NCBI GenBank assembly: GCA_964574655.1
Contig: CAZNOH010000001.1
Coordinates: 535,020 to 599,019, forward strand
Reading direction: 5' to 3'
DNA length: 64,000 nucleotides
Origin: an uncultured Candidatus Saccharibacteria bacterium
Lineage (GTDB): Bacteria > Patescibacteriota > JABMPQ01 > JAQVVF01
Positions 12,162 to 55,245 of the stretch are shown here, in pieces (positions within the stretch are counted from its first letter, which is position 1; every line of letters starts with the position of its first letter). The position numbers were made by a program, and so were the translations under genes. Below the pieces are notes generated by a model. It searched no databases. It saw only the letters and a list, made by a program, of their open reading frames with translations, and was not told the DNA's origin.

Positions 12162-12503
12162 GCTAATCTACGAATATGCAAATATTCTGATACAAATTTA
12201 GCCCTGCATAACATATATTGAATTTTTGGGTTATTTTGTAAGTCTTATTACAGACCTATAAATATAGCACTTTTTGTATGTTCCGTCAAGGCTTTTTTGT
12301 AAATCTTTGTTTTTTTGGCTTGTTTAAGACATTTCCATTTGGACTGAATATCTTAGCAAATTGTAGTTCTAGTGTCAAGGTTTACTGTGGATAAAACACT
12401 TTAACTAATAAAAAAAGCGTACAAAAGTTGTACGCGATGAACAAGATTGTTATTCAGCAACATTTTTATATAACATATTTATATCTTGCTAATTTCATTT
12501 TGT

Positions 12504-12512
12504 TGGTATAAT
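12504..12512 (+). promoter_or_regulatory. extended -10 promoter element (TGgTATAAT) for the 12551 ORFan
   Basis: tggtataat lies 39-47 nt upstream of the ATG; a TTGCTA-like -35 sits 15 nt upstream. Confidence 0.4.
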
Positions 12513-12550
12513 ATAACTTGAAGTTTGCACCTTAAAGAAGGAGGGACAGA

Positions 12551-13054
12551 ATGACATTAAAAGTCGGGCAAGCTGTTATAATTCGAATATTGGAAGAAGG
12601 TGTTTGTCAGCGCCTGCTTGATGCTTTTGTAGAACGACTTGAGCCACTGACGTTCAGAGTTGCAACTACAGGTAGCTATTGGCACAAAAAATTTCAATTA
12701 TCTCAATGCGAATTTATTGCTCTAGGCCGTATGGAACCGAAGATCTACTGGTTCTGCAGACATACTATTCCTGATCCTCAAGGATTAGGTCAAAAACTAG
12801 ATCTTCGTCTTGTTGCCATTTCAGCATTGTGCGAGGTAACTGCTTGGGAAATTCTTTTCAGATCCCAGGGTGCCAAAATCGGTGATGCTGACTGTGACTT
12901 GCCTACTTTTAAGCAACATTTTCATATTGAAGCTACGACCAGCAACATGGACACTGAAGGAGTGTTGATCATCCACGATTGCTCCTTAGTCGCACCTTTT
13001 TGGATTGCTGATTCTGAGCCTTGCTATACGATTGAGAATATGAAACTGCGTTGA
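12551..13054 (+). CDS. ORFan protein (167 aa) in an intermediate-GC, strong-RBS cassette
   Basis: AAGGAGGG 6 nt before the ATG; G+C and codon usage clearly richer than neighbours; no recognisable domain. Confidence 0.5.
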   Translation: MTLKVGQAVIIRILEEGVCQRLLDAFVERLEPLTFRVATTGSYWHKKFQLSQCEFIALGRMEPKIYWFCRHTIPDPQGLGQKLDLRLVAISALCEVTAWEILFRSQGAKIGDADCDLPTFKQHFHIEATTSNMDTEGVLIIHDCSLVAPFWIADSEPCYTIENMKLR

Positions 13055-13083
13055 TATATTGCACAAGTTTTTTTAAAAAAAAT

Positions 13084-13108
13084 AATCAGCTTTCTAGGCT
13101 GATTTTTC
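13084..13108. terminator. bidirectional intrinsic terminator (ATCAGC-tttctagg-GCTGAT flanked by an A-run and a T-run)
   Basis: Perfect 6 bp stem followed by TTTTT on the plus strand with an A-run before it; lies between convergent genes. Confidence 0.55.
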
Positions 13109-13128
13109 TTGCTTGTTTTATTATATAA

Positions 13129-14343
13129 TTATTTTAATCCCCTGTAAATTTTGATTATTTGTTGATAATGGTCTTCTGAACTATATTTTTGTTCAACAAG
13201 CTTTTTGGCATTATCGCCCATTTTTTTAGCTAGTTCTCGATTGCTGGCTAAGTCGTTTATTTTGCTTGCTAAATCCTGACTATCACCTGTTTTGAATAAT
13301 AAGCCAGTTTGTTTATCTTTGACTATCTCTGGCAAGGCGCCTAAGTTAGATGCAATTACAGGTTTTGCTAAAGCGTAATTTTCTAGAATTGATAAACCAA
13401 AAGTTTCATAAACTTCTGAGGGATGAATTATGAATTGAGAATTGTTAATTTCTTGCTGTATTTTTTCTTGATCCAAAAAACCTAAATACTTAATGTTATT
13501 TAGATTCTCTTTTTTAGCTAAATTCTTAAATTCTTGTTCATCTAGTCCTGATCCTGCGATATGTAATTCAATATTTTTAACATTTTTCATGGCTTTGATC
13601 AAAGTCTTGATTCCTTTTTCTTTAATTAAACGGCCGAAATATAAAATATAGTTTTGCTGATTTTGTGGTTGAATCTCATTATACTCTGTAAAAATAAATT
13701 CAGGCAAAATAGTAATTTGATCAGGCTTAATGATGCCAAATTCTAGAATTTTGTCATAAACAAATTTGCTTGGAGCTAAAAATAAATTAACATTATTTTC
13801 ATAAATTCTGATTAGCTTGTGAAAATACATTTCTTTAGACGCAAGCGCGCTTTGCCAAAATTTGTTTTTAATGCATTTTCTAAATGTGCATTTGTAATAG
13901 CGATATTTTTTGCATTGCTCGCAAAGTTCATTCTTTGAATATAGCGTGTAATTTGGACAAATTAATTTAAAATCATGCAGAGTTTCAACAACTGGAATTT
14001 TGTATTTTTTCGCGACTGTCAAAATTGATGGCGAAATTTGATGGTAAATATTATGAATATGAATTAGATCTGGCTTGGTATCAATAATTAATTGCTCAAA
14101 CTTTTTCTTAGCTTCAAATGAATACAATACTCTTCTGGCTTTTTTAAAATTATAGCCTGGCTTTTCAAAATTAATGTTGCTTACAAAATATTTAGAATAT
14201 TTGCTTGGATAATTTTTTTCATCTTGCATTGAAAAAGGAATGACTTCATGACCCTTTGATTCAAGCAATTTTGTTAAATTAAAATAGTAGCGTTCTGCAC
14301 CGCCTTTTACATAATGAAACTTATTGGCTTGGATTATCTTCAT
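13129..14343 (-). CDS. glycosyltransferase family 4
   Basis: GT4-like N-terminal domain and a conserved C-terminal E-x7-E region (EVYETFGLSILE). Confidence 0.7.
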   Translation of the reverse strand: MKIIQANKFHYVKGGAERYYFNLTKLLESKGHEVIPFSMQDEKNYPSKYSKYFVSNINFEKPGYNFKKARRVLYSFEAKKKFEQLIIDTKPDLIHIHNIYHQISPSILTVAKKYKIPVVETLHDFKLICPNYTLYSKNELCEQCKKYRYYKCTFRKCIKNKFWQSALASKEMYFHKLIRIYENNVNLFLAPSKFVYDKILEFGIIKPDQITILPEFIFTEYNEIQPQNQQNYILYFGRLIKEKGIKTLIKAMKNVKNIELHIAGSGLDEQEFKNLAKKENLNNIKYLGFLDQEKIQQEINNSQFIIHPSEVYETFGLSILENYALAKPVIASNLGALPEIVKDKQTGLLFKTGDSQDLASKINDLASNRELAKKMGDNAKKLVEQKYSSEDHYQQIIKIYRGLK

Positions 14344-14360
14344 ATGTTACTTTTTATATC

Positions 14361-14432
14361 GTCATCTCGAGCGAAGCGAGAGATCCCGTAATTCTATAAA
14401 TTCACGGAATTCCTCACTTCGTTCGGAATGAC
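14361..14432. repeat. palindromic repeat GTCATCTCGAGCGAAGCGAG...CGTTCGGAATGAC (REP/MITE-like)
   Basis: Roughly 30 bp imperfect inverted arms; second copy at 19831-19907; partial cgaagcgaag motif also at about 38215-38235. Confidence 0.55.
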
Positions 14433-14437
14433 ATGTG

Positions 14438-15886: not shown

Positions 15887-15957
15887 ATCAGTATATGTTT
15901 TTAGATTAACATAATTTTTGAATAAAAAAAAGCAGTATTAAATTGGTAACTGCTTGA

Positions 15958-16024
15958 TGGTGCCCGGAGCGGGATTCGCCCTGCCATGAAGGCAGGGCGC
16001 CCCGCCCTTGTGGCGGGGCGAACC
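15958..16024 (-). pseudogene. partial duplicate of the tRNA-Leu 3' end interrupted by two GC-rich mini-hairpins
   Basis: tggtgcccggagcgggattcg (identical to the tRNA 3' terminus), then ccctgccatgaaggcagggcg and ccccgcccttgtggcggggcg, then aacc. Confidence 0.5.
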
Positions 16025-16066
16025 CAAATTATAAGCAAAAAAAACAGCACATTACTATGCTGTTGA

Positions 16067-16150
16067 TGGTGCCCGGAGCGGGATTCGAACCCGCATGTCT
16101 TGCGACGGAGGATTTTAAGTCCCCTGCGGCTACCTTTTCGCCATCCGGGC
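16067..16150 (-). tRNA. tRNA-Leu (anticodon TAA), long variable arm, CCA encoded
   Basis: Reverse complement folds as a cloverleaf: acceptor GCCCGGA/TCCGGGC, anticodon loop CTTAAAA, long variable arm, T-arm GGTTCGAATCC. Confidence 0.8.
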
Positions 16151-16272
16151 TGAAGGAACAGAAGGTACGCGTTTTTTGTAACATTGCATTATACTACAAT
16201 GGCCAAATTTGTCAATGTTTTGTGCTTACAAATCTCACGAATGCCTTAAGCTCGAATAACACTAATATACGA

Positions 16273-16554: not shown

Positions 16555-16691
16555 AAAAAGCATTGGAGTGAGCACAAAAAAAGAGCCCACTGAAAGTGAA
16601 CTCTTGAAGGAACGAACGCTGAAAGAACTGGAATTGTTGGAGAGAAGCCGCACCCGACGCACTTGCGTTTGTCGGATGGGAACTGAAGATT

Positions 16692-17276
16692 CTAGGGGAG
16701 CTTGAGGTAGTGGCCGCCGGAGGGATCCGACATGATCTTGAGACCATCGTAGACGTTGCATCCGACGACGGTCAGCCAGTCTTCGCCACTCCGAGGCCAC
16801 GCGGAATCGACACCAGCAGGAATCATCGCGCAAGCACCGTTGTTCGCCGTCTGCAGAGCGCAGACCGGCTCGACCCCAGGAGGCATGCACCCGAAGGTCC
16901 ACGCACCGAGGCCGACGATGTTGCCGCAGATCTGGCCGTTGTCGATCCACACCTCGCATATATCGGTGTCGGGCGGATTGTTGGGCACGCACTGGGTCTG
17001 GCCCGCCTGGCACTCGTTGCCACCTTCGCCTTCGCCCTCGCAGCCGCAGTCGCACCCCTCGCCCTCGCCTTCGCCACCGTCCACCACGCCACTGTCCGTC
17101 TCACCCTCGCCCTCGTTGCCCTCACCTTCTCCTTCTCCCTCACCTTCACCCTCGCCCTCGACGCCCTCACCCTCGCCCTCGTTGCCGTTGTCCTCCATGT
17201 CCTTCTCGCGCAGGGCGCAGTTCGTGTTGATGATCGTCAGGCCGAACAGGATCCACATCGTCGCGCGCTTCATCAC
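16692..17276 (-). CDS. secreted protein with (EG)n repeat and Cys-rich C-terminal domain, in the high-GC island
   Basis: GGAGGAGG RBS; N-terminal signal peptide; GEGEGEGEG tract; 14 cysteines; GC-rich codon usage unlike the host. Confidence 0.5.
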   Translation of the reverse strand: MMKRATMWILFGLTIINTNCALREKDMEDNGNEGEGEGVEGEGEGEGEGEGEGNEGEGETDSGVVDGGEGEGEGCDCGCEGEGEGGNECQAGQTQCVPNNPPDTDICEVWIDNGQICGNIVGLGAWTFGCMPPGVEPVCALQTANNGACAMIPAGVDSAWPRSGEDWLTVVGCNVYDGLKIMSDPSGGHYLKLP

Positions 17277-17351
17277 AGCACCTCCTCCTCTCTCGTTGAC
17301 TCACCCGAACCGGGCGCTCGACTCCTTGCGAAGCCGAGCGCCCGGACGACT

Positions 17352-18416
17352 CTAGAACCGCACGCCGAAGTTACCGGCGCCGGACTTGATCATCTGCCAC
17401 CCACGCCGGTCCTCCACGTCACCCTTGAGCTCGCCACGCATCTCGTAGATGAACGACCAGCCCTCGAGCTTCGCGAGTTCTCCGACGAATCCCACGCCAC
17501 CACCGACCTCACCGCGACCGAAGTACATGTGGGTGTCGAGGTCGAACGTCCTGCCGATCAGACAGAAGTGTGGCTTGATCCACTGCTTCCAGTCGTACTC
17601 GGCGTTCAGCTCGAACCCGGCAGCACCGACCTCGTTGGCCTTGCCGTACTGCGCGCCCACCCCGATGGTCCAGCTCTCGCTGACCGGGAAGTTGACACGG
17701 AGCATGGCTCCGACGAAGTTGTCGCGCTCGGGGCTCCAGAGGTACTGTCCGACCAGGTCGTAGGTGATGTTCACCTTGGCCTCGCCGTCGTCACCCCTGC
17801 AATCCATCACGTCGCACTTCGTGTCCTTGTTCACGTCCTCATCACCATCACACTTGTAGTTTTCATTGCTGTCCCAGCACTGGACCGACGGCTTGGGCAG
17901 GCAGTCTTCCACGAGCCGGATGATAGCACCGCGCTGCCCTTCCTGGGCTCGCGTGAACATCGTCCCCTCGCGGATTCTGTTGCCGTTGACACCGATCTCC
18001 ATCAGCTTGTTCATCATGTAGCTCGCCCGCGCCCGCGCCCGAACAGCCCTGAGCGGATCCTGACCCCCAGCAGCGCGCACCTCTGCGGTGCCGCCGAACG
18101 GGGTCACGTCCTCCACCCCGCTGACTTCCAGGCATCCGAACTGAGCGGTATCCAGAGTAGCCTTGGCGCCGTTGAGGGCGTCGGTCCACTCCGTCTTCCA
18201 GCTCACGTTCTGCCCGGTCAGGTCGGCGTTGAGGAACGTCCAGATCTTCTTCTGCGCGGTTGCCCGGTCTTCCTCGGCCACGGGGGCCTCGGGAGCCGGC
18301 TGCGCGTAGGCGATCTGTCCCTCCTCGTCGTCCATCCAGAAGTAGTTGTAGGGGTTGATGTTGAAGAAACCGCAGATGAAAACCACCACCATCAGCCAGT
18401 TGATCTTGCGCTTCAT
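17352..18416 (-). CDS. outer-membrane-protein-like protein (OmpA-like segment, Asp-rich Ca-binding-like motif, C-terminal Phe), in the high-GC island
   Basis: RBS GAGGAGG; signal peptide; segment RAVRARARASYMMNKLMEIGVNGNRIR resembles the OmpA C-terminal domain; CDGDEDVNKDTKCDVMDCRGDDGE; alternating beta-strand-like C-terminal half ending GVRF. Confidence 0.45.
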   Translation of the reverse strand: MKRKINWLMVVVFICGFFNINPYNYFWMDDEEGQIAYAQPAPEAPVAEEDRATAQKKIWTFLNADLTGQNVSWKTEWTDALNGAKATLDTAQFGCLEVSGVEDVTPFGGTAEVRAAGGQDPLRAVRARARASYMMNKLMEIGVNGNRIREGTMFTRAQEGQRGAIIRLVEDCLPKPSVQCWDSNENYKCDGDEDVNKDTKCDVMDCRGDDGEAKVNITYDLVGQYLWSPERDNFVGAMLRVNFPVSESWTIGVGAQYGKANEVGAAGFELNAEYDWKQWIKPHFCLIGRTFDLDTHMYFGRGEVGGGVGFVGELAKLEGWSFIYEMRGELKGDVEDRRGWQMIKSGAGNFGVRF

Positions 18417-18674
18417 CGTCTTGCCCTCCTCATCCTCGTTCTCTCGTGTTGTAGGGTCCTAACCCTGTTGTCGGAATCTGTAGAAAGTAACATTGAATAC
18501 TAGCACAATTGAAAAAATTTGTCAACAGGATTTGATGGTTTTACCTTATATAAGCCAAAATTTAACTCTAATTTGTTATAATTATGTTTATTTGGTAAAA
18601 TAGAAGCATTAAGTTATAAGCTATAAGCTATATTTTCTTATTGCTTACAGCTTTTAGCTATAGCTCAAAAAAAC

Positions 18675-21849: not shown

Positions 21850-21993
21850 TTATTTAGCTTTTCCAATTCTGAACATCTTTGTTCCGCATTTTGGGCATTT
21901 GCCAGTTGTTGCTGGTCTGCCATTCTTCATCTTGATTTCTTTTGCTTCTAACATTTCTTGTTTCGCTTTACATTTTACACAATATGCTTCCAT
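21850..21993 (-). CDS. 47-aa zinc-ribbon protein (MEAYCVKCKAK...KCPKCGTKMFRIGKAK)
   Basis: Absent from the ORF track (<60 aa); AGGAGA RBS 6 nt upstream; two CxxC pairs; looks like a small conserved zinc-ribbon protein. Confidence 0.5.
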   Translation of the reverse strand: MEAYCVKCKAKQEMLEAKEIKMKNGRPATTGKCPKCGTKMFRIGKAK

Positions 21994-22133: not shown

Positions 22134-22280
22134 CGAAAACTCTAAATCCTAAACTCTAAACTCTAAACAAACTCAAAATTCCAATATCCAAATTTCAGGA
22201 AACTCCGAAGCCATGCTTTTGAATTTTATATTTTAGTAATTTGTATTTATTTAGAGTTTAGTATTTAGAGTTTAGGATTT
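22134..22280. repeat. long palindromic element, CTAAAT family copy
   Basis: aaactctaaatcctaaactctaaactctaaacaaactcaaaattcc ... atttagagtttagtatttagagtttaggattt. Confidence 0.5.
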
Positions 22281-23667
22281 ATTCGTGGATCACAACTGGA
22301 TTTCCAATATCTGCCCAATTGTAAAGTTGCTCTGCAAAAGGCGTTGGTAAATTTACACAACCATGGCTCATACGGTTGCCAAAATTATTATGCCAATAAG
22401 TGCCATGAATTGTATATGGACCTAGAAATGATAAAACATAAGGAACTCCTGGAAGATAATAGCCTGGTCCTGCCATTAACACTGAAACTCTTTTTGAAAA
22501 AACATTAAAGATACCCAGTGGCGTGTCTGTGCCATAATTACCAGTCGATGTTAATGAATAACCAATCTTGCGCGTGTTCTCAAAATATTTTAACCATTGT
22601 TCACTAATATCTACTTCAATATATTTTTGATAAGGATAGCCGCCTCTTTCACCTTTGTAGTTGGCAATTGATACTTCAATTTTATTTTTTCCTGTCTTTG
22701 TCAATTTGCCACTGGCAACATTAATTCCACCTTTATAATTTTGATCAAAAGCAAAAAAATCTTTTCCCAATGAACGGCCTGAGGCAGTAAAAATTTTGAC
22801 TTGCGGACCACCGCCATATCCTGCGCCAGTAATTATTTCGGCTTTCTTATCATTATTAACATCTATTGCTGAAACAGTTGTTCCGCCTTTGAAATTCGAG
22901 CTGTAGGCTAAAAAATTACCTAAAACAGTAACGTCTTTATTTGCTTTAAAAACCTTAACCCAAGCTTGGCCTTCTGATGCTTGGCTGGCAATTATTTCAT
23001 CTTTCAAATCTTTATCAACGTCTCCGACGGCAACATTAACTCCGCCATTAAACTCAGAATCAAATGGATAGGAAGAAAATAAGACATCGCCCTTTTTATT
23101 GAAAACCCTGACTTGCGGACCGCCACCATATCCTGCGCCAACAATTATTTCGTCTTTTAAATCACCATTGATGTCGCCAGAAGCAATATTTGCTCCACCC
23201 TTAAAGCCAGATGGAAAAGCTAGGAAATTTGATAAAACTTTTTTTCCTGTTTTATCATAAATTTTAATCCAAGCCTGACCAGAGCTTGCTTGAGAGCAAA
23301 TTATTTCATCATAGCCATCCTTGTTTAGATCTCCGGCAGCAACATTGACTCCACCTTTAAAACTTTCGGAAAAAGCGAAAAAAGAAAATTTTTCGTTGCC
23401 TAGTTTATCAAAAATTTTTACTTGCGGGCCACCGCCATATCCTGCGCCGGTAATGATAAAATTATTGTTGCTATCATCGAGCTTGGCAAATGCAACACTT
23501 GCACCGCCTTTGAAATTCTTGTCATAAGCATAAAACGCCTTATTTAATCTTAATGTTTTGGCATTATAGATTTTTACTTCTGGAGAGGAGGCATCATAAG
23601 CTAATGCTTGATTAAAACAGATGCACAAACTAATAAGCGCTAGAGCGCCGACAAGAATTTTTTTCAT
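22279..23667 (-). CDS. secreted FG-GAP-repeat protein with C-terminal L,D-transpeptidase (YkuD) domain
   Basis: Signal peptide; repeated D-x-N/D-x-D-G-x-x-E-I-I motifs with GAGYGGGPQV; C-terminal HGT...SHGCVNL catalytic motif. Confidence 0.65.
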   Translation of the reverse strand: MKKILVGALALISLCICFNQALAYDASSPEVKIYNAKTLRLNKAFYAYDKNFKGGASVAFAKLDDSNNNFIITGAGYGGGPQVKIFDKLGNEKFSFFAFSESFKGGVNVAAGDLNKDGYDEIICSQASSGQAWIKIYDKTGKKVLSNFLAFPSGFKGGANIASGDINGDLKDEIIVGAGYGGGPQVRVFNKKGDVLFSSYPFDSEFNGGVNVAVGDVDKDLKDEIIASQASEGQAWVKVFKANKDVTVLGNFLAYSSNFKGGTTVSAIDVNNDKKAEIITGAGYGGGPQVKIFTASGRSLGKDFFAFDQNYKGGINVASGKLTKTGKNKIEVSIANYKGERGGYPYQKYIEVDISEQWLKYFENTRKIGYSLTSTGNYGTDTPLGIFNVFSKRVSVLMAGPGYYLPGVPYVLSFLGPYTIHGTYWHNNFGNRMSHGCVNLPTPFAEQLYNWADIGNPVVIHE

Positions 23668-24915: not shown

Positions 24916-25063
24916 AAATTTTATTTTTTATTTTTAAATATATAATACGAATGACGATACAAATAATGCGAATGTTACGAATTACGAATACGTCAAATAT
25001 TTTTTGTTTAGTTTAGTATAGCATAATTTTTTGTTTTTGGGCAAATAAAAAAGTGAGAGTAAC

Positions 25064-25423
25064 TCACTTAGGATGAACTTCAATGTCAAAATCTTTTTGA
25101 GACGCAGAGAGCTTGCTTTCGAGACGATGTACACAACTATCAAGAATCCTGTGAATCCAATCCTCATACTCTACTAAAAATAGGGGCGCTCTTTCAGAGA
25201 AGAAATTTGTTCTATCGAGATCGTGTACTACCTTTCTCGCATGTTCAGGCTTTAGCGATGCATTTTCCAACATAAAACAAATCCTACGGATGATCTCAAG
25301 GTACACTTCTCTTGCTTCATTAGGATAATCGTCATCTTCACTAAAGATTCCTTGTATGAGAATCAGATTTCGAAGCTCATCAATCAAAAGTTCGTGCAAC
25401 AATTTTTCTTTTGAATCTGCCAT
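25064..25423 (-). CDS. ORFan protein (119 aa from MADSKEK), second gene of a self-contained cassette
   Basis: GGAGGAAAAC RBS before ATGGCAGAT; intermediate G+C; a terminator hairpin AAGTGAG-agtaa-CTCACTT plus T-run overlaps the stop. Confidence 0.45.
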   Translation of the reverse strand: MADSKEKLLHELLIDELRNLILIQGIFSEDDDYPNEAREVYLEIIRRICFMLENASLKPEHARKVVHDLDRTNFFSERAPLFLVEYEDWIHRILDSCVHRLESKLSASQKDFDIEVHPK

Positions 25424-25458
25424 GTTTTCCTCCTGTCTCAAGGTACGGCCAACTCTTT

Positions 25459-25713
25459 TTAGAGTCGGCAGCTAGGACAAATTTTCATTGTAGCATCATT
25501 GACAGTTTTACCGGCTGGAATGTCATCTGAATGGCAGAGAGCAACATGACTGATTTTGCCTCTTTTCCCGCATTTATCACATTTTTCAATATATCTTTGC
25601 AAAATCATGTCCCAAAGTCCTATCAGAGGCACAAAAAGAATGAGAACGAGGAATATAAACAGCGTTGCTAATAACATACAAATTACTATTAAGAAGTCTT
25701 TTACTGTTTTCAT
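25459..25713 (-). CDS. small membrane-anchored zinc-ribbon protein (84 aa), first gene of the cassette
   Basis: GGGAGG RBS; N-terminal TM helix; C-terminal CDKCGK...C...CPSC. Confidence 0.5.
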   Translation of the reverse strand: MKTVKDFLIVICMLLATLFIFLVLILFVPLIGLWDMILQRYIEKCDKCGKRGKISHVALCHSDDIPAGKTVNDATMKICPSCRL

Positions 25714-25766
25714 TCTTTTTCCTCCCTTTGAGTTGGTTGGTTACTGAAAAGAGCTTAACTGGATTA

Positions 25767-25795
25767 AATATATTCTTTTTTGCCTTGAAAGTCAA
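25767..25795 (-). promoter_or_regulatory. near-consensus sigma70 promoter TTGACT-17-TATATT driving the 25713 to 25064 operon
   Basis: Read on the minus strand: ttgactttcaaggcaaaaaagaatatatt; the RBS and ATG lie about 50 nt downstream. Confidence 0.5.
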
Positions 25796-30887: not shown

Positions 30888-30928
30888 AAATATTTATTTT
30901 TTGTGGTCAAGGTTTTAGCCCCGAACTT

Positions 30929-30946
30929 CCCGGCCTAAAGGCCGGG
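30929..30946. other. GC-rich mini-hairpin CCCGGCC-taaa-GGCCGGG in the typA leader
   Basis: Same CCCNGCC-N-GGCNGGG architecture as the two hairpins at 15979-16018. Confidence 0.45.
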
Positions 30947-30983
30947 CCACGATTTAACTAGAATTATATTTTATTCAAATAAA

Positions 30984-31057: not shown

Positions 31058-31086
31058 TTGACAGTTAGATGATTACATATTATATT
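31058..31086 (+). promoter_or_regulatory. consensus sigma70 promoter TTGACA-17-TATATT
   Basis: ttgacagttagatgattacatattatatt about 45 nt upstream of ATG 31132; 5'UTR hairpin TGCCAC-aaaaa-GTGGCA then AAGGAGGA. Confidence 0.5.
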
Positions 31087-31131
31087 TATTTGATCTGAAA
31101 GGTGCCACAAAAAGTGGCAAGGAGGAAGATA

Positions 31132-31548
31132 ATGGGAATGGTACGCGCATGCACTGGACAGCAATCTGAAAAAACAATCGGAAGTGTTCTAAAAAGTGTA
31201 ACTCCTTTTGTTGGATCTGATCGCGAAGGTGAAATTTCGCAATTGGGCATTGGATTGATTGATGGTACTTCTGCGTCTTTTTGGGGTTTGCTAGTACCAC
31301 ATCTGGTTATCAGATCATGGCGTGCAATGAAGATTTTGGAGCAACTGCAAACTATTCAGGCAGACTCTCTATGCGCATGCTACTATGCAGCAAGGCGTGA
31401 AATTGATGATACAAATAAAAACTTGATTGAGAGTCTTGCTAATCTTTTCGGCGGTATCAATAAATTCGAGGCAGTTCGCAGAACAGTTCTGGCAAGCGCT
31501 CCTAGCGCTGATGAACTGAATGAAATGCTAGCAATTTTCCATGCATAA
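31132..31548 (+). CDS. ORFan protein (138 aa), first gene of a two-gene intermediate-GC cassette
   Basis: Strong RBS AAGGAGGA 6 nt upstream; the track ORF begins at a GTG at 31102 inside the UTR hairpin, but ATG 31132 is better supported. Confidence 0.45.
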   Translation: MGMVRACTGQQSEKTIGSVLKSVTPFVGSDREGEISQLGIGLIDGTSASFWGLLVPHLVIRSWRAMKILEQLQTIQADSLCACYYAARREIDDTNKNLIESLANLFGGINKFEAVRRTVLASAPSADELNEMLAIFHA

Positions 31549-31551
31549 GGC

Positions 31552-32181: not shown

Positions 32182-32200
32182 ATCATTTTGTACTTTTTCT

Positions 32201-32232
32201 AATTCCTACTGATGTGGGAATTTTTTTATTTT
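32201..32232 (+). terminator. intrinsic terminator ATTCCTAC-tgat-GTGGGAAT plus T8
   Basis: Hairpin followed by tttttttatttt. Confidence 0.5.
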
Positions 32233-40749: not shown

Positions 40750-40813
40750 AATTAACAGTTAATGGCTAACAGCTAACAGAAATCTGCTAATTGCTAACTG
40801 CCAAGTGTTAATC
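40748..40813. repeat. TAACAG/GCTAAC-word palindromic intergenic element
   Basis: cataattaacagttaatggctaacagctaacagaaatctgctaattgctaactgccaagtgttaatcg; related copy at 10667-10732. Confidence 0.45.
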
Positions 40814-42085: not shown

Positions 42086-42199
42086 AAAATCCTAAATCCA
42101 AAATTCTAAAACCAAATTTTAAGACAATGACGTCTGCTTTAGATTTTTTATTTTGAAATTTGAATTTATTTAGAATTTATAATTTGGGATTTAGAATTT
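42086..42199. repeat. long palindromic element, CTAAAT family copy with an aatGACGtctg centre
   Basis: aaaatcctaaatccaaaattctaaaaccaaatttt ... gaaatttgaatttatttagaatttataatttgggatttagaattt. Confidence 0.5.
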
Positions 42200-44721
42200 C
42201 ACAACGTCTTTACTCCTGCTACTTCTAATGCTTTTTTTTCAGATTCAGCAATTTGAGCTCTCTCCATTATCTCGCCTGCAACGATTGACTTACTGCGTCC
42301 ATATTGTAAGCGTGATAATTCTCTAACTGCATTCGCGATCTTCATGTTTGCACCTTCGGCTGGCGGATATGTTGCCATTGTAAATGCTTTTGATTTTGCG
42401 CTATCAATCATTAATCTAAGATAAGCGTGATATTTCTCAATATTAATAACATCATTTTCAGTGAAAACTGGCTCAAGCTCCTTGGCTACGATTTCTGCAT
42501 CTTCAACACCAACACGAAATGAGGTAAACGTACCGACGTTTCCAAAAACTGCATCTCTTATTTTTTCTTCAAGCTGTTTTATGTACTGGTGAGCGACGAT
42601 CAAATTGAGTTTGTATTTTCTAGCTTCAGACAAAATTGAAGCAAAGCTATCTGTAGCAAAATTTTGGAACTCATCAACGTATAAATAAAAATCCTTTCTT
42701 TCAGATTCTGGAATATCAGCGCGTGAATACGCTGCCATCTGAATCTTAGAAACAATAATCAAACCTAACAAAGACGAATTCGTCTCACCGATCTTGCCTT
42801 TAGAAAGATTTACAAGCAGAACTTTGCCTTCATCCATTATTTTTCTTAAATCAAACGACGAATGGCTCTGACCAATTATATTTCTCATCATTTCATTTTC
42901 CACAAAACGACCAACTTTAGAGATTATGTAACCCAACATTTCTGATTTATGAAAGTCTGAAGTTTTTGCCATTTCTTTTTCCCAGAAAGCTCGAACAACT
43001 GGATCTTTTAATTTTGCAATCCATTCTTTTGCATATTCAGTGTCTGTGAACATTCTCGGAATTTCTGCTAAAGTGCCTGGATTTTCTTTATCAGACATCA
43101 AAGTCAGCATAACATTTCTCATTTGGTGTTCGAACATCGGACCGATCATCTCTGGCGGAAATAATTTGAAGAAAATTTGCATCATCTCCTGTACAGCAAA
43201 ATCTTTTTGATCTTCTGTTTTAAATTCAAGCATATTTAAACCCATCGGACGATCAATATCAAAAGGTTCAAACAAAATAACATCGTCAACTCTTTCTTTT
43301 GGAATGAAAGGCAAAATACTTTCAACTAAATCACCATGCGGATCAACAACGCAGATGCCTTTGCCAGCTTTGATATCCTGGATAATCATATTTTGCAAAA
43401 GATTGGATTTACCAACACCGGTTTGACCAATAACATACATATGCCTTCTTCGATCATCATCTTTGATGTGAATAGGAGTTTCGATTCCACGATAGACATT
43501 TTTTCCTAATAGCAAGCCTTGTTTTGGAGTATTGTGCGGAGCTGGAGCATCACGAGCCAATAGCCAATGGACATTTGGAGTTTCGGTGAATTTTGTTGGA
43601 AGATGGAATATTGATGCTAACTCTTCAGTATTAAGAATACACTTTTTTTTATTGTCAAAACTGCGGAATATAAAATCCTGAATTAATTTTGATAAGCGAA
43701 CTTTGCGCTTAAAGAATTTGTTTGATGATGGGTCTGCATATTGCGAAAAAGCGCCAATAATGCTTTCTAAAGTTTCTTCTGCTTTAGTCTCTTGATCTGA
43801 GCAAGCGATGATTCTAATATTTGTGAAAAAGCCGAGCTTGTTTGATTTTATTTCTAAAGCTTTGATTCTTTCTTGGACCAAAGGTGACAAATTTGGCAGT
43901 CCTCCTGATTGTGATTGTTCTGGTCCAGACATAGGGTTGACTGCTTGTTCTAGAACACTTCTTTCTTCTTCTTTTTTTCGACGGAAAAGTTTGCCAATAA
44001 GATTTGCAGAGGCATGCTCATATGTTTCGCCACGTTGCATTTTTCTAGCAATGTGCGGTCCTTCTTTCATCCAAGACTTGCCTGCAGGACGAATTAGATA
44101 TTGAATTGCTGCACCTTCTGTTTTTTCATTTAATTTACTCAAAGCATTTGTAATGCCGTTCAATGGATCTGATTCAATGGTCTGATAGGTCTTGATTGGC
44201 AGAAAATCTTGGTTTTCAGTTGTTAACATGGCGCCTCTAATCTTGCACTTTGGAGTAAAAATATTATACTCACCCTCTTCAGAAATGAAAGCTTTAGGAA
44301 ATTGAGAGTGGATAACTTTTTCAACATATTGTTGCAATCTCCTTGGCACTGCAACATAAAAACGAATTTCTCCTTTTAACGAGACTATTTCAAAAGATAT
44401 ATATTCTTTTCCATAAAAACTTGCCAACAAACCCTTAGTAACTGATTCAATAGAATGAAGATTGGCAAACATAGTTTCAGCAACAGAAATCATTTCTTTT
44501 TCTTCTTTCTTGGCTTCTTCAGCAACTGGCTTGGTTTCTTTTGGAACAGAAATGAGCAAGGTAACCATATCAAGAGAATGCGGTATTATGTTTCTTTTTT
44601 TGAGAGCAGAAATTACTAAAAGATATAATAATATAGCCAAAGCTAAAAGAGTTATTACAAAAATAATGCTAACAAACGGTTCAGAACTAGAACTGAATAA
44701 ATTAATATAATTACTTATCAT
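42199..44721 (-). CDS. membrane-anchored VirD4/TraG/TrwB-like (type IV coupling protein / DUF87-type) P-loop ATPase
   Basis: N-terminal TM helix; Walker A VIGQTGVGKSN; Walker B region DEFQNF ... LIVAHQ. Confidence 0.55.
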   Translation of the reverse strand: MISNYINLFSSSSEPFVSIIFVITLLALAILLYLLVISALKKRNIIPHSLDMVTLLISVPKETKPVAEEAKKEEKEMISVAETMFANLHSIESVTKGLLASFYGKEYISFEIVSLKGEIRFYVAVPRRLQQYVEKVIHSQFPKAFISEEGEYNIFTPKCKIRGAMLTTENQDFLPIKTYQTIESDPLNGITNALSKLNEKTEGAAIQYLIRPAGKSWMKEGPHIARKMQRGETYEHASANLIGKLFRRKKEEERSVLEQAVNPMSGPEQSQSGGLPNLSPLVQERIKALEIKSNKLGFFTNIRIIACSDQETKAEETLESIIGAFSQYADPSSNKFFKRKVRLSKLIQDFIFRSFDNKKKCILNTEELASIFHLPTKFTETPNVHWLLARDAPAPHNTPKQGLLLGKNVYRGIETPIHIKDDDRRRHMYVIGQTGVGKSNLLQNMIIQDIKAGKGICVVDPHGDLVESILPFIPKERVDDVILFEPFDIDRPMGLNMLEFKTEDQKDFAVQEMMQIFFKLFPPEMIGPMFEHQMRNVMLTLMSDKENPGTLAEIPRMFTDTEYAKEWIAKLKDPVVRAFWEKEMAKTSDFHKSEMLGYIISKVGRFVENEMMRNIIGQSHSSFDLRKIMDEGKVLLVNLSKGKIGETNSSLLGLIIVSKIQMAAYSRADIPESERKDFYLYVDEFQNFATDSFASILSEARKYKLNLIVAHQYIKQLEEKIRDAVFGNVGTFTSFRVGVEDAEIVAKELEPVFTENDVINIEKYHAYLRLMIDSAKSKAFTMATYPPAEGANMKIANAVRELSRLQYGRSKSIVAGEIMERAQIAESEKKALEVAGVKTL

Positions 44722-48084: not shown

Positions 48085-48116
48085 TAAAAAAACCGGTAGA
48101 TTAAATGCCGGTTTTT
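48085..48116. terminator. bidirectional terminator AAAAAAACCGG-tagattaaatg-CCGGTTTTT
   Basis: Hairpin flanked by an A-run and a T-run between convergent genes. Confidence 0.5.
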
Positions 48117-48145
48117 GATTGAGCGAAATTTTTTAAGGTTCTTTT

Positions 48146-48496
48146 TTATGGACATTTTCCGTCTGATCTCCAAACTACTTCTCCGTCACAAACCATCGAT
48201 TTCGCAGGAAAAGGACTAATGGAATCTAAAACGCCATATGGAACATTATTGCATGCAACATATACATGATTGCAGGCTCCGGTTGAAAAGAAAAGGATAG
48301 TCAAAACCAGAGCAAAAATGCCAACGGTTGCGCGAATACTGCCCTCTTCAGCATTCGCAATAATAAATCCAGCGACTATCCAGATAAAAGCGACAACGCT
48401 GAGAACTCCTAGGATTCCGCCGATTGCAGCGCCAAGAACAAAAAGGACTCCAAAAAAAAGAATGATGACAACAATAATTCCAACTATCAGTCCCAT
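48146..48496 (-). CDS. small membrane protein (116 aa) with Cys-containing C-terminal tail, intermediate-GC
   Basis: GGAGGGAAAGAAG RBS before the ATG; three hydrophobic helices; divergent from the LOG-like gene. Confidence 0.45.
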   Translation of the reverse strand: MGLIVGIIVVIILFFGVLFVLGAAIGGILGVLSVVAFIWIVAGFIIANAEEGSIRATVGIFALVLTILFFSTGACNHVYVACNNVPYGVLDSISPFPAKSMVCDGEVVWRSDGKCP

Positions 48497-48584
48497 CTTC
48501 TTTCCCTCCTGCTTGGGTTTAAAAGAGCTATGAAATAGTTTAATCTTTTATCTAAAAAAACACAAGAGTATACGCTTTTTTTCT

Positions 48585-48613
48585 TTGACAAAAATTATTT
48601 ATTATGCTATGTT
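48585..48613 (+). promoter_or_regulatory. sigma70-like promoter TTGACA-17-TATGTT for the LOG-like gene
   Basis: ttgacaaaaattatttattatgctatgtt about 40 nt upstream of RBS AAGGAGGAGG. Confidence 0.5.
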
Positions 48614-48653
48614 TAAAAATTGAATTTGCACCTGAGAGAAGGAGGAGGAAAAG

Positions 48654-49184
48654 ATGGCGAGGATCGCAATCATCGGTGGCTCAGCAGATGAAAAGATTCG
48701 CGATGAATTGGTAGAAAAAATCACTCGCGAACTGGTTGCAAGAAAACATCAAGTATTCCATGGCGGATTGGATTTTGGAGTCATGCTTGCCTGTCATAAA
48801 GGTGGCGGTATTGGCATTACTCACCAAGATCAAATTGACGGTGGCTTTGCTTTAGCTGATGCCATGAACGTTAGCGTGTTGAAACATCAATTTCCTGGAT
48901 TCAATGAAATTGATTTTGGACGCGCAATTCGTCATCAGCTGTTGACACAAGAGTGCGATTTGGTAATTGCTTTCGGAGGTGGAATCAGAACTTTTGACGA
49001 GCTGATTGGAGCAATCATGACAAAGAGAAAGATTGTTCTTGTAGGACACGATTGGTCGCCTTTGCTATATGTTTTGTTTGGAAAAATCGAGATCGAGCAT
49101 GAAAAAACCTTGCTATGCAAAGTTTTACCTCACCATCCAATTGAAACCATTGTGTCTGCAATCGAAGCTCATTTGAAGAAATAG
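48654..49184 (+). CDS. LOG/TIGR00725-like (SLOG Rossmann) nucleotide-binding protein
   Basis: IAIIGGS ... GGLDFGVMLACHKGGGIGIT ... VIAFGGGIRTFDELIGA matches the GGGxGxM ... PGGxGTxxEL pattern of LOG-family proteins; strong RBS. Confidence 0.55.
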   Translation: MARIAIIGGSADEKIRDELVEKITRELVARKHQVFHGGLDFGVMLACHKGGGIGITHQDQIDGGFALADAMNVSVLKHQFPGFNEIDFGRAIRHQLLTQECDLVIAFGGGIRTFDELIGAIMTKRKIVLVGHDWSPLLYVLFGKIEIEHEKTLLCKVLPHHPIETIVSAIEAHLKK

Positions 49185-49206
49185 AGACTGTTAGTCTCTT
49201 TTTTAT
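49183..49206 (+). terminator. intrinsic terminator AGAGACT-gtt-AGTCTCT plus T7
   Basis: Perfect 7-bp stem then ttttttatt, overlapping the stop codon. Confidence 0.55.
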
Positions 49207-49300
49207 TGACTCACACTAATACCACACGAATTACACTAATGCTTTTTTCGAATAAGCTATTTGTAAATTTGGTTAAAAAATGATAATTTATAAATATAGT

Positions 49301-49412
49301 TTCTACTTGGCTTTAGCCAAAGGGTCGAAGAGCTTTAGCTCTTTTTATGGCTAAAGTTCATTAAAAATTTTGCAATCCAAAATTTTTAATCCCCAGCTAA
49401 AGCTGGGTAGAA
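49301..49412. repeat. REP/MITE-like element copy 2 (full length), immediately upstream of cysS
   Basis: ttctacttggctttagccaaagggtc ... ccccagctaaagctgggtagaa. Confidence 0.6.
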
Positions 49413-52367: not shown

Positions 52368-52381
52368 AAAATTGCTAATTA

Positions 52382-52465: not shown

Positions 52466-52499
52466 AAATATTGTTTTAATCAATTATTAAACTAAAAAC

Positions 52500-52793: not shown

Positions 52794-52899
52794 ATATGAT
52801 GCCAATATGCGAATCTTATGCCAATTATGCTAATTGCTAATGCTATTATTCGCAATTTGTAGATTGGCATAAAATTAGTAGATTTGCATCATTTTTTTT

Positions 52900-53502: not shown

Positions 53503-53539
53503 AGATATATATAAAGCCGAAAGGCTTTTTTTGTCAGGT

Positions 53540-53568
53540 TTGACTTTAAATTATAAATTTGCTAAATT
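53540..53568 (+). promoter_or_regulatory. sigma70-like promoter TTGACT-17-TAAATT for the 53623 ORFan
   Basis: Preceded by the recR terminator (aaagccgaaaggcttttttt); followed by 5'UTR hairpin CCTGCCG-agaa-CGGCAGG (53592-53609) and a GGAGG RBS. Confidence 0.45.
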
Positions 53569-53622
53569 AGATAATTGCACATTATATTTCACCTGCCGAG
53601 AACGGCAGGATTGGAGGTTAAA

Positions 53623-54189
53623 GTGAAACAGCCACTGATATTGAGAGTAGCGAAACAGCCATTGGAATGGGAGACAGGAGCTGTTTTTGAAGAATATCCG
53701 ATTGGCACAATGATCAGATTGCCGATAACAAAGCGATTTGGTCCTTTTTGGCTATTCAAGTATCATACTGATGTTACTGCAAAAGTTGTTGCTCAAGATG
53801 CTGAAATCGTGAAGAGAAAAAGCAATGGAAAAACAATTCCCTTTTTTCATAGTGTTGCGGAATTGTATATTGCACCATATGGCAAACGATGCTTGTTGGG
53901 AGTATTGGATAAGTTTATGATGGACGGATTTGCTGAAGTTCTTTCTGTACCAGATTGCGAGATGCATGATGAAGATGGGAAAAAAGTCTTCACGGAGCTT
54001 GCAGTTGGAGATTCTGTCAGAGCATACAGAGAAGACACTCGCATAGAAGGAAAGATTATTGCTATAACTGGATTGAATGTATATACAATTTCTGATCTTC
54101 GCGATCCAGACTGGACTCATTACCTTAATGTTTCGCTGAGAGATTTGCTTTGGTACAAGAGAGAGCCGAATAAGGGGCAACTGGTTTGA
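53623..54189 (+). CDS. ORFan protein (188 aa from GTG 53623; the track ORF starts at a TTG at 53575 inside the 5'UTR)
   Basis: GGAGG 5 nt before GTG; intermediate G+C; no recognised domain. Confidence 0.45.
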   Translation: MKQPLILRVAKQPLEWETGAVFEEYPIGTMIRLPITKRFGPFWLFKYHTDVTAKVVAQDAEIVKRKSNGKTIPFFHSVAELYIAPYGKRCLLGVLDKFMMDGFAEVLSVPDCEMHDEDGKKVFTELAVGDSVRAYREDTRIEGKIIAITGLNVYTISDLRDPDWTHYLNVSLRDLLWYKREPNKGQLV

Positions 54190-54203
54190 TTATCGTTCTT
54201 TTT

Positions 54204-54264
54204 TAGACATGAATTCATGTCTTTTTTTAATACAAAAAAAGACTGCATATCTTTGCAGTCTTTT
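54204..54264. terminator. two tandem bidirectional terminators (GACATGAATTCATGTC plus T-run; AAAAAAAGACTGC-atatcttt-GCAGTCTTTT)
   Basis: Perfect palindromes flanked by A and T runs between convergent genes. Confidence 0.55.
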
Positions 54265-54274
54265 AAAATATTAT

Positions 54275-54589
54275 TTAGGAAATTTTTGTGATTTTTACTT
54301 CAGTATATACTGGTCTGAAACCAACTGTTCTTTTGTATCTTTTTTTAGCCTTATATTTGACTGTTAGAACCTTGTCGCCTTTTACTTCTCCTCTTAGAAC
54401 TTCAGCTTCTACTTTTGTTCCAGAAATTCTTGGCGCGCCAATCTTAGTTGCTTTTTCATCTATGAACAAAAGCACTTCTTTAAACTCTATTGTCTTCTTT
54501 GGATCCATAATTTTGTCAATCAAAATAATGTCACCTTCAGAGACCTTGTATTGCTTACCGCCTGTTTTTATAATTGCAAATTTTGTCAT
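54275..54589 (-). CDS. rplU: 50S ribosomal protein L21
   Basis: MTKFAIIKTGGKQYKVSEGD N-terminus. Confidence 0.85.
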   Translation of the reverse strand: MTKFAIIKTGGKQYKVSEGDIILIDKIMDPKKTIEFKEVLLFIDEKATKIGAPRISGTKVEAEVLRGEVKGDKVLTVKYKAKKRYKRTVGFRPVYTEVKITKIS

Positions 54590-54596
54590 ATAAGTA

Positions 54597-54625
54597 AGTA
54601 TATGCTTGTTTTATGTTTTGGTCAA
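54597..54625 (-). promoter_or_regulatory. sigma70-like promoter TTGACC-17-TATACT for rplU (minus strand)
   Basis: Reverse complement reads ttgaccaaaacataaaacaagcatatact about 10 nt upstream of the start. Confidence 0.4.
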
Positions 54626-54743
54626 GTCTTTTCGTATTGACTTAATTTTATGTTTGTTGTTTGATTGTTAGAATATTTTTCGCTAGTAATTTGATAATAA
54701 AATAATTGAGTAACTACTTTTTGTTATCCCCAAAAAAATTATT

Positions 54744-54772
54744 TTGTGAAGTTATAAAAAATCTGGTAGACT
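54744..54772 (+). promoter_or_regulatory. promoter-like TTGTGA-17-TAGACT upstream of the 54807 gene
   Basis: Correct spacing to RBS GGAGGG at 54795-54800. Confidence 0.35.
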
Positions 54773-54806
54773 GAAATTGGGTAGCTAAGTGTCGGAGGGA
54801 AACAAC

Positions 54807-55208
54807 ATGCCAGCCAGAAAAGTCACCGAGAAGTCTGCTAGTAGCCAGGATCCTGGCAGTAAAAACGCAGGCTGCACTGACAAAAAAACGATGGTGCTGT
54901 TGATGGAGTGTGACGCGCAGAAATGTAGAGCCCTTTGTAAAGCATTGGAAGATGCGGGATTCGGTATTTTTGTTTGTAACGATTTGAGTTCCTGCATTCA
55001 CACAATTAGAGTTGGTTACGAAATTGGATTTGCTCTGATTGCTCCAACTATTGAAGGTCGCAATGGATACATGTTAACAGTTAGGAAGTTTTGCGCAGAA
55101 CAGAAAATCCCTCTTGAAGAAATTGATGACTATACTGTTGGCAAAATCAAAAGACACGGCATTCATTTCCAACAGCAAATTGCTCCACCGCAAATTATCA
55201 CACAATAG
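54807..55208 (+). CDS. small receiver(REC)-like protein lacking the canonical acid pocket (133 aa from ATG 54807)
   Basis: Alternating beta/alpha pattern MVLLMECD...GFGIFVCND...GFALIAPTIEGRNGYML resembling CheY-like receivers; GGAGGG RBS; intermediate G+C. Confidence 0.4.
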   Translation: MPARKVTEKSASSQDPGSKNAGCTDKKTMVLLMECDAQKCRALCKALEDAGFGIFVCNDLSSCIHTIRVGYEIGFALIAPTIEGRNGYMLTVRKFCAEQKIPLEEIDDYTVGKIKRHGIHFQQQIAPPQIITQ

Positions 55209-55218
55209 ATTGCTCATT

Positions 55219-55245
55219 AACAGACTATCCAGTCTGTTTTTTTTT
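55219..55245 (+). terminator. intrinsic terminator AACAGACT-atcc-AGTCTGTT plus T9, overlapping the convergent gene's stop
   Basis: Read directly. Confidence 0.55.

Follow-up and report, generated by a model that had tools for sequence, protein, structure and literature searches.

Phage morons are independent promoter-gene-terminator units lodged between the conserved genes of lambdoid prophages. Integron cassettes are small, single-gene, ORFan-rich units of atypical composition, which are promoterless, end in attC sites and are stacked at intI/attI. For horizontally acquired islets, Lawrence and Ochman reportedly gave a model in which the incoming DNA undergoes amelioration. Here we compare with these systems six loci dispersed over 43 kb of a 64,000-nucleotide (nt) stretch from an uncultured, ultra-small Candidatus Saccharibacteria bacterium (contig CAZNOH010000001.1 of assembly GCA_964574655.1, positions 535,020 to 599,019 of the forward strand), referred to below, in its full length, as the window. 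A preliminary description had listed the loci as expression cassettes of recent and common origin, and all six are present where it placed them; they are numbered here as cassettes 1 to 6, the fourth comprising 4a and 4b. Judged from their sequence, the six loci are genuine self-contained transcription units, each made of a promoter, a short leader, a strong Shine-Dalgarno (SD) sequence, one or two open reading frames (ORFs) and an intrinsic terminator. Their proteins are accessory and restricted to the lineage or the phylum, and comprise membrane-anchored-looking Cys-rich proteins, a SLOG-domain protein, a receiver-like protein and ORFans. We argue that the units are a class of old genomic islets and not the recent cargo of one element. 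The fuller account, to which we would give about an even chance, is that they are old, autonomous, SD-dependent accessory genes that were acquired at various times from other Patescibacteria and were then inherited vertically, evolving fast and turning over.

The units are set apart by their translation signals. The pairing of the 20 nt upstream of each start with the canonical anti-SD sequence was expressed as a predicted energy, the 16S rRNA gene itself lying outside the window. The 10 SD-led ORFs of seven loci (the six, and a seventh described below) pair at -10.0 to -13.4 kcal/mol, whereas the native genes (n=55) have a median of +0.6 kcal/mol and 54 of them are weaker than -6 kcal/mol. 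The strong SD of the cassette genes and its lack in the host genes, both reported earlier, are thereby confirmed. The single SD-bearing native gene codes for a 47-amino-acid (aa) DUF5679 protein (21850-21993, minus strand; AGGAG, -7.5 kcal/mol), and its SD is kept in all four relatives examined. Barring a few spurious internal sites, a search for GGAGG-type motifs combined with a start and a plausible ORF recovers the cassette genes, two further genes at 16.7-18.4 kb and nothing else. The SD-led set makes up about 15% of the genes in the window. Native leaders have an A fraction of 0.49 and a G+C content of 0.19. Two modes of translation initiation appear to coexist in one small genome. Every unit also carries a near-consensus or extended -10 promoter and an intrinsic terminator, and the earlier statement that each locus has its own promoter and terminator holds for all of them.

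The composition of the units differs from that of the native genes as well. The G+C content of the cassette ORFs is 0.36-0.44 against 0.24-0.41 for native genes (native mean 0.324; p=1.6e-6), and their G+C content at third codon positions (GC3) is 0.31-0.39 against 0.17-0.31, with ranges that barely overlap (Mann-Whitney p=1e-6). The codon usage richer in G+C than that of the host, claimed in the preliminary description, is thus significant when checked gene by gene. G+C is likewise raised at first and second codon positions. In the cassette proteins Cys is overrepresented 3.7-fold, and Lys, Asn and Tyr are about two-fold scarcer.

The surroundings of the units are chromosomal, as follows from the housekeeping genes of the window. 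Its G+C content is about 31-32%, and it codes for CysRS, DnaB, YbaB, RecR, ribosomal protein L21, BipA, Ddl, alanine racemase, SerRS, the DNA polymerase III tau/gamma subunit and many glycosyltransferases. The DnaB protein shares 94% identity with its counterpart in the Patescibacteria metagenome-assembled genome (MAG) STF1_73 (JAQVVF010000001.1, locus L003), and the remaining close matches are all from MAGs of Patescibacteria (the candidate phyla radiation). The units occupy spacers between housekeeping genes, and have CysRS, DnaB, RecR, L21, BipA, Ddl and glycosyltransferase genes as neighbors. The source genome is metagenome-assembled and its composition shifts abruptly at the unit borders, as would be expected if assembly or binning had produced a chimera, or if the ORFs were spurious and lay in non-coding DNA richer in G+C. 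However, identical cassette proteins with the same host-gene junctions are found in the separate Logan assemblies SRR13723397 and SRR13723394, and with this recurrence the junctions cannot be chimeras of one assembly. Orthologs occur in MAGs of other studies, the ratio of nonsynonymous to synonymous divergence (dN/dS) is below 0.5 in the cassette genes, and a Pfam domain (4b), a profile match (cassette 6) and one confident fold prediction also speak against an artefact, which we regard as excluded for practical purposes.

The age of the units is told by their relatives. STF1_73, the closest relative, is represented by the loci L003 (about 80% nucleotide identity to the window) and L091; L004 is from a more distant relative than L003, and L092 is from an outgroup genome, Ga0376277_0000067. 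Cassettes 4a, 5 and 6 are collinear with their flanks in L003, where their proteins are 86%, 44% and 66% identical, respectively. The synonymous divergence (dS) from L003 is 1.07-1.14 for cassettes 5 and 6, the same as for DnaB (1.07), and 0.35 for 4a, while dN/dS is 0.19-0.45 in the cassettes (4a 0.19, cassette 5 0.45) against 0.04 in DnaB. The L003 orthologs of 4a, 5 and 6 keep the SD and the promoter, and that of cassette 5 keeps the leader hairpin too. From such constraint and conserved signals the cassettes are, on sequence evidence, real genes. Cassette 6 has a 100-aa ortholog in L004. At the syntenic sites of the outgroup locus L092 there are an ortholog of cassette 1 (44% aa identity) and, in place of cassette 2, two paralogues of its 119-aa protein together with a third SD-led ORF.

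Presence alternates with absence among the same relatives. L091 lacks cassette 1, and it lacks cassette 2, having a 102-nt spacer there. The SLOG gene of cassette 4b is absent from L003, in which 137 nt that align with its promoter region and contain a promoter-like sequence directly precede cysS. In L004 the recR|rplU spacer, the site of cassette 5, is occupied by two SD-led ORFans to which cassette 5 has no detectable similarity. From the synteny, the presence in the outgroup and the absences in single lineages, most units are at least clade-old and subject to loss and replacement. Most of them were present in the ancestor of the genus-level clade and have since been inherited vertically under purifying selection, evolving several-fold faster than core genes. 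These comparisons do not support the claim of recent acquisition, as 4a, 5 and 6 are syntenic in L003 at a DnaB dS of about 1, and cassettes 1 and 2 were already represented in the outgroup. Neither a low dS to a donor nor a far-off composition, as would mark a recent islet, was found: the orthologs of cassettes 5 and 6 have diverged by a dS of about 1.1, as core genes have, and the GC3 excess of the cassettes is about 0.03-0.10. Since the orthologous loci in relatives contain the same genes with only a slight G+C enrichment (GC3 0.27-0.33 against about 0.24), a shared recent origin fails. The accessory, mostly ORFan content asserted earlier is borne out, with some presence and absence between relatives.

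Cassette 3 provides a view beyond the clade. The locus (31058-32227, plus strand) has a promoter at 31058-31086, a leader hairpin at 31101-31119 and a terminator at 32201-32227. It is real, but was described as two ORFs, 31132-31548 and 31552-32181; these share a frame and are split by a single TAA (31546-31548) in what is one gene of 349 codons (31132-32181). Over their full length the joined ORFs align with a family of proteins of about 350 aa, whose members carry Lys or Glu at the position of the TAA. The gene could be freshly disrupted, read through, or re-initiated at a GTG three bases on. The family comprises 36 homologues of 28-61% identity, none of which has a Pfam domain; the three with a named source are from a Niyogibacteria MAG, a Moraniibacteria MAG and an unclassified bacterial MAG. 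It is found in five unrelated contexts, among them L083, L085, L086 and L175, and has an SD in every one. Both a promoter and a terminator can be recognized in the window, L085, L086 and L175, and a terminator in L083. The G+C content of the gene and of its locus is 0.43 and 0.31 in the window, 0.42 and 0.38 in L083, 0.57 and 0.52 in L175, 0.57 and 0.59 in L085, and 0.57 and 0.46 in L086, where GC3 is 0.675 against about 0.37. This distribution shows apparent mobility of the family within the phylum.

Mobility invites the question of a vehicle. The first interpretation of the loci was that they are recent cargo of one mobile vehicle, integron-like or phage-moron-like, or else non-native insertions, here taken in the sense of engineering. 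The uniform architecture and atypical composition of the units are in agreement with it, as are a promoter and a terminator in each unit, which phage morons also have, and a 21-nt leader common to cassettes 1 and 4b. An IS200-like, RAYT-like Y1 transposase gene (60537-61136, minus strand; PF01797, 24.1 bits, cut-off 23) and G+C-rich hairpins resembling repetitive extragenic palindromes in spacers (30918-30950, 49300-49410 and 15980-16025) can be counted on the same side. Nevertheless, syntenic orthologs with a dS of about 1 for cassettes 5 and 6 are not what recent cargo would leave. An all-against-all comparison of the seven loci and their flanks gave no shared boundary repeats or attC-like sites; the leader is the one shared element, and at the 3′ side the hairpins consist of a short G+C stem and a run of T. 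A scan of about 30 of the 55 ORFs, with most neighbors included, and the precomputed Pfam assignments of syntenic genes show no integrase, recombinase or phage gene next to the units; among the ORFs scanned the transposase is the only mobile-element gene in the window, and it lies 5 kb from the nearest unit. PHROGs gave no meaningful match (one at an E-value of 0.04), and no phage homologues appeared in IMG/VR (cassette-3 profile), GenBank phages (cassettes 1, 3 and 5) or BFVD folds. The units are dispersed and do not form an array, and each bears its own promoter.

The flanking hairpins also tell against one vehicle. The preliminary description had counted upstream hairpins as part of the cassettes. 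The hairpins that flank cassettes 1 and 2 are real, but STF1_73, which lacks both cassettes, keeps those upstream of cassette 2 and downstream of cassette 1; by their position they would terminate the neighboring host genes. Finally, the units recur in several independent environmental assemblies, which speaks against engineered insertion as well. The interpretation as recent cargo of a single vehicle is contradicted for five of the six units, and we consider it very improbable. Like morons, the units are autonomous transcription units between conserved genes, with a composition unlike the flanks, mostly accessory ORFans and different genes at one site in relatives. They differ from morons in lying outside a prophage among housekeeping genes, in having no phage homologues by sequence or fold, in being mostly clade-old, and in the contrast of SD-led and SD-less initiation, which is defining here and is not in the moron concept. 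They differ from integron cassettes in their own promoters, plain terminators, dispersed positions, and lack of a common recombination site and of a nearby integrase.

Entry from other members of the phylum can be outlined as follows. Native genes would start translation without an SD from A/U-rich leaders, while the units would depend on canonical SD/anti-SD pairing, likely because their G+C-richer 5′ regions are unable to use the unstructured A/U-rich route. The units would have entered, most likely at different times, from G+C-richer, SD-using Patescibacteria. As the sequence shows no dedicated vehicle, they would have come in by uptake followed by illegitimate or flank-guided recombination. 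Since the ancestor of the clade most of them have been inherited vertically, evolving fast under purifying selection, with loss or replacement in single lineages. According to published work, the transfers detected into Patescibacteria originate mostly within the phylum itself (PMC12455944). Amelioration is feasible, as by a rough two-state estimate a GC3 excess of about 0.10 after a dS of about 0.55 per branch would fit an ancestral GC3 of about 0.5. The units thus resemble the islets of Lawrence and Ochman in their atypical G+C content and codon usage, accessory content, patchiness and smaller GC3 excess in one lineage. They differ from them in that the six loci have no tRNA, integrase or repeat signature, and in that a related operon of 62% G+C shows no amelioration at all over a dS of about 1.

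This operon is a seventh unit of the same architecture, which was missed when the six were listed. It lies on the minus strand at 16576-18525, with a promoter at 18525-18497 (TTGACA-17-TAGTAT, in AT-rich DNA) and a terminator at 16605-16576. Both of its coding sequences (CDSs) are SD-led: the first (18416-17352) codes for a predicted OmpA-like protein of 354 aa, and the second (17273-16692) for a protein of 193 aa which, by eye, has a hydrophobic N-terminus, acidic EG-repeats and a Cys-rich C-terminal half. The G+C content of the unit is 0.62-0.65 and its GC3 is 0.81-0.85. Beside GT4, Wzz and Wzy polysaccharide genes the unit is found at the same site in five assemblies including the window (L087, paired with L091; L089, paired with L092; L093; L094), and in the other four it has a G+C content of 0.59-0.67 and a GC3 of 0.73-0.86. 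Its proteins are 46-76% identical across the clade, with a dS of 0.8-1.3 that equals that of the AT-rich flanks (GC3 0.23-0.28). Among 5.8e9 proteins there are seven homologues of a gene of this unit, and the five with context examined are all at the same site in the clade.

Such a composition is hard to reconcile with decay. By a rough two-state estimate, about one relaxation time would have passed per branch, so that the GC3 excess of 0.60 could only be left over from an ancestral GC3 above 1. This rules out simple amelioration, and the seventh unit maintains its composition. Polarized third-position changes number 31:10, against 38:82 in the AT-rich flanks, with no excess beyond a mirror-image bias, although parsimony polarization is too biased by the skewed composition to decide on equilibrium. 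The unit weakens the assumption that a deviant G+C content in this clade must mean recent transfer. It is a rare compositional island that does not decay over saturating synonymous divergence.

The 354-aa protein is a further peculiarity of the operon. Structure prediction and fold matches give an 8-stranded barrel, an OmpA-C-like domain and a C-terminal aromatic signal (...GVRF), and there is no Pfam match. The protein is predicted to be an inverted OmpA-like protein, in which a peptidoglycan-binding domain is followed by an 8-stranded outer-membrane barrel. In comparison with OmpA, OprF and Pal, it has this inverted order of domains, is limited to one clade of Patescibacteria and has an extremely G+C-rich codon usage in a genome of 31% G+C. 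To our knowledge, Patescibacteria are generally regarded as without an outer membrane. If confirmed, either the non-decay or the outer-membrane protein calls for an explanation; candidates are selection for composition, biased gene conversion, and an unusual envelope or relation to the host. STF1_73 carries SD-led paralogues of the OmpA-like gene with a G+C content of 0.35-0.41. Such paralogues, SD-led and of this intermediate G+C content, lie between the operon and the Wzy gene in L091 (12740-13549 and 13729-14988) and in L092 (12880-14133); at this position the window has tRNA-Leu only.

Several findings weigh against acquisition from other Patescibacteria followed by vertical decay. For none of the cassettes was a donor identified. 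Homologues outside the clade are lacking for the SLOG protein, for cassette 6 and, as far as seen, for cassettes 1 and 5, and a metagenome scan based on BipA for the site of cassette 3 returned only relatives of at most 73% identity, none with cassette homologues. The seventh unit has kept its deviant G+C content as long as the clade has existed, and that of the six units may likewise be maintained and not left over. An SD that is kept in all orthologs, and is present at the native DUF5679 gene, fits a functional class as well as a foreign origin.

As the main alternative, the six units, the operon of 62% G+C and the DUF5679 gene could form a native, translationally distinct class, whose dependence on the SD and richer G+C content would be upheld by selection or biased gene conversion. 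Possible reasons are translation only when the anti-SD is available, as proposed for rpsU of Bacteroidia, or a need for stable, structured mRNAs; the composition would then be a property of the class and not a trace of transfer. We hold this to be rather unlikely. It agrees with the high GC3 of the operon in five genomes despite its dS, and with its polarized changes. The retention of the SD, the promoter and leader hairpins in orthologs also fits, as do a cassette GC3 above that of native genes in all three genomes compared, the leader match of cassettes 1 and 4b, and similar GCACCY-spacer-AGGAGG leaders in L004 and L085. On the other hand, the GC3 excess of the six is small and is lower in L003 (0.27) than in the window (0.35), as ongoing decay predicts. 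At four-fold sites the cassettes owe their extra G+C mainly to codons ending in G, and not to those ending in C, which are typical of translational selection. In 170 Patescibacteria loci, SD-led ORFs show no enrichment of the GCACC leader motif (2.9% against 2.1%), and shuffled sequences give predicted SD-masking stems as good as those in the leaders of cassettes 1 and 4b. In 87 other loci from Patescibacteria, SD-led ORFs have a GC3 raised by 0.041, but a shifted-window control gives 0.032 and reproduces most of the effect, so this phylum-wide association is mostly compositional confounding. Gains, losses and replacements argue for dispensability.

A precedent for such a class is found in Bacteroidia, whose ribosomes are blind to the SD, with rpsU as the SD-led exception (PMC7797042, PMC9976891, PMC13000453). 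As in Bacteroidia, nearly all genes of the window have no SD and have A-rich leaders, the native genes showing both the scarcity of SDs and the A-richness, and the set with a strong SD is very small. The phylum is another one, however, and the SD-led genes are accessory ORFans instead of a ribosomal protein gene and form about 15% of the genes. The mechanism in Bacteroidia has the anti-SD sequestered by bS21, bS18 and bS6; the window contains no 16S rRNA, rpsU, rpsR or rpsF gene.

A related idea, which we consider improbable, is that the SD-led genes, that is, the six units and the OmpA-like operon, are a separately maintained expression class, in which selection would keep canonical SDs and G+C-rich codons because of a different translation regime. 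One version would have ribosomes translate them while in a state that leaves the anti-SD accessible. In the extreme version they would be expressed in a diderm host cell after transfer of DNA or RNA, and the barrel would be destined for the outer membrane of the host. Agrobacterium T-DNA genes, by analogy, carry plant expression signals. The window codes for an 840-aa protein (42199-44721, minus strand) with a coupling-ATPase domain of the VirD4/TrwB/TraG type (PF10412, PF02534), which is conserved in L003. A separate expression class is compatible with the maintained composition of the operon, the conserved SDs, this ATPase and the lack of a known donor. We nevertheless keep to old accessory islets as the preferred account of the six units. 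Patescibacteria account for much of bacterial diversity, and few of their accessory genes have a known function. In one clade, a simple and nearly binary signal marks out the accessory ORFans: a strong SD in a genome otherwise without any, together with a slightly richer G+C content. The signal is a practical handle on fast-evolving genes that may act on the symbiont surface or against the host.

The promoters and leaders of the units were described as near-consensus sigma70 promoters, frequently with a small hairpin in the 5′ untranslated region. The near-consensus promoters are there, but they are not foreign-looking, since the TTGACA-17-TATAAT type is also that of the native promoters of tRNA-Leu (matching at 12 of 12 consensus positions), tRNA-Gln and rplU. 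Promoter-like matches in the window number 95 against 77 +/- 10 expected, barely above chance in AT-rich DNA. Leader hairpins are far more stable than shuffled controls in cassettes 3 (z -3.6) and 5 (z -5.0). The leaders of cassette 1 (TTTGCACCTTAAAGAAGGAGG, 12524-12544, plus strand) and cassette 4b (TTTGCACCTGAGAGAAGGAGG, 48625-48645, plus strand) are identical at 19 of 21 nt (TTTGCACCT..AGAAGGAGG). The CACCU of this shared leader corresponds to a part of the canonical 3′ tail of 16S rRNA and might base-pair with the SD. Within the window the GCACC motif is not enriched (7 against 6.6 expected).

The products were searched against Pfam, PHROGs and PADLOC, and among all cassette proteins only 4b gave a match, to SLOG; sequence searches of cassettes 1, 5 and 4b against the PDB gave nothing significant. 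The earlier remark that only a LOG-like product can be placed holds in that the units encode mostly ORFans; it does not hold for cassette 6, which is receiver-like, or cassette 3, which belongs to a conserved family of Patescibacteria. Cassette 1 (12486-13108, plus strand) has a promoter with an extended -10 at 12486-12512 and a terminator at 13084-13108, and its CDS (12551-13054) codes for an ORFan of 167 aa with 8 Cys, for which no Pfam, PHROG, PADLOC, PDB or phage match was obtained. Cassette 2 is bicistronic (25047-25795, minus strand), with a promoter at 25795-25767 and a terminator at 25069-25047. The first CDS (25713-25459) codes for 84 aa with an N-terminal hydrophobic segment and a CxxC...CxxC pattern, by eye; an intercistronic hairpin follows at 25469-25448 (minus strand), and the second CDS (25423-25064) codes for an ORFan of 119 aa, helical by eye.

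Cassette 4a (48086-48565, minus strand) has a promoter at 48565-48537 and a terminator at 48116-48086. Its CDS (48496-48146) codes for 116 aa with, by eye, about three hydrophobic segments and a Cys-rich C-terminus. This protein and the 84-aa protein of cassette 2 are small and, by eye, have hydrophobic N-terminal segments and a Cys-rich or zinc-ribbon-like tail. Cassette 4b (48585-49204, plus strand) has a TG-extended promoter at 48585-48613 and a terminator at 49183-49204, and its CDS (48654-49184) codes for 176 aa. The protein matches PF18306 (SLOG cluster 4; 2.5e-10, 40.6 bits, cut-off 26.3), whereas PF03641 (LOG/'lysine decarboxylase') stays below its cut-off of 27 at 15.9 bits and the PDB match to 1rcu is weak (E 0.064). 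The segment ...AFGGGIRTFDEL..., read by eye, resembles the LOG motif PGGxGTxxE without matching it. No close homologue of 4b was found in 5.8e9 proteins, and none in a scan of JGI metagenomes.

Cassette 5 (53540-54264, plus strand) has a promoter at 53540-53568 (TGc-TAAATT) and two terminators, at 54205-54228 and 54237-54264. Its leader hairpin (53590-53609, plus strand) lies inside a structure of -19.7 kcal/mol that partly covers the SD, and its CDS (53623-54189), with a GTG start, codes for an ORFan of 188 aa. Cassette 6 (54744-55245, plus strand) has a promoter at 54744-54772 (extended -10 TGgTAGACT), a terminator at 55219-55245 and a CDS (54807-55208) for a stand-alone protein of 133 aa. 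The single sequence has no Pfam match, and no homologue beyond the orthologs was found among 1.8e9 representative proteins. Nevertheless, a profile of three orthologs matches 3cg4 of the PDB at 9.5e-7 and ArcA at 7.5e-4, and nearly all of the 33 matches are receiver domains; the product is a predicted CheY-like, receiver-like protein. A by-eye alignment of its GFALIAPTIEG with GFVISDWNMP of CheY puts Ala at the phospho-acceptor position, and the L004 ortholog likewise has no Asp there.

Two further observations concern native DNA. At 15954-16030, beside tRNA-Leu(taa) at 16067-16150, the 3′ end of tRNA-Leu is repeated exactly over 25 nt, and two G+C-rich hairpins follow this copy at the place expected for the T-loop. 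Downstream of its tRNA-Leu (L091, about 12300-12600), STF1_73 carries two such copies, each ending in GGGCACCA and a terminator. This element resembling a tRNA 3′ half is conserved; it has no Rfam match, the Rfam search of the window having returned two tRNAs only. Native leaders, moreover, are built of tandem repeats of 7-11-nt 'words' (TACGAAT, ATTTAGA, TAACAAT, TAACAGC and others), with arrays, for instance, at 2918-2958, 6549-6616, 7599-7648, 10668-10705, 12142-12185, 22249-22281, 40753-40779 and 57125-57207. Of 58 arrays, 39 lie in the intergenic 15% of the window. An array is present within 90 nt upstream of 16 of the 55 native genes, compared with none of the 10 SD-led genes. Orthologous native leaders in relatives carry similar words, and the arrays may be part of native SD-independent initiation or of the promoter context.

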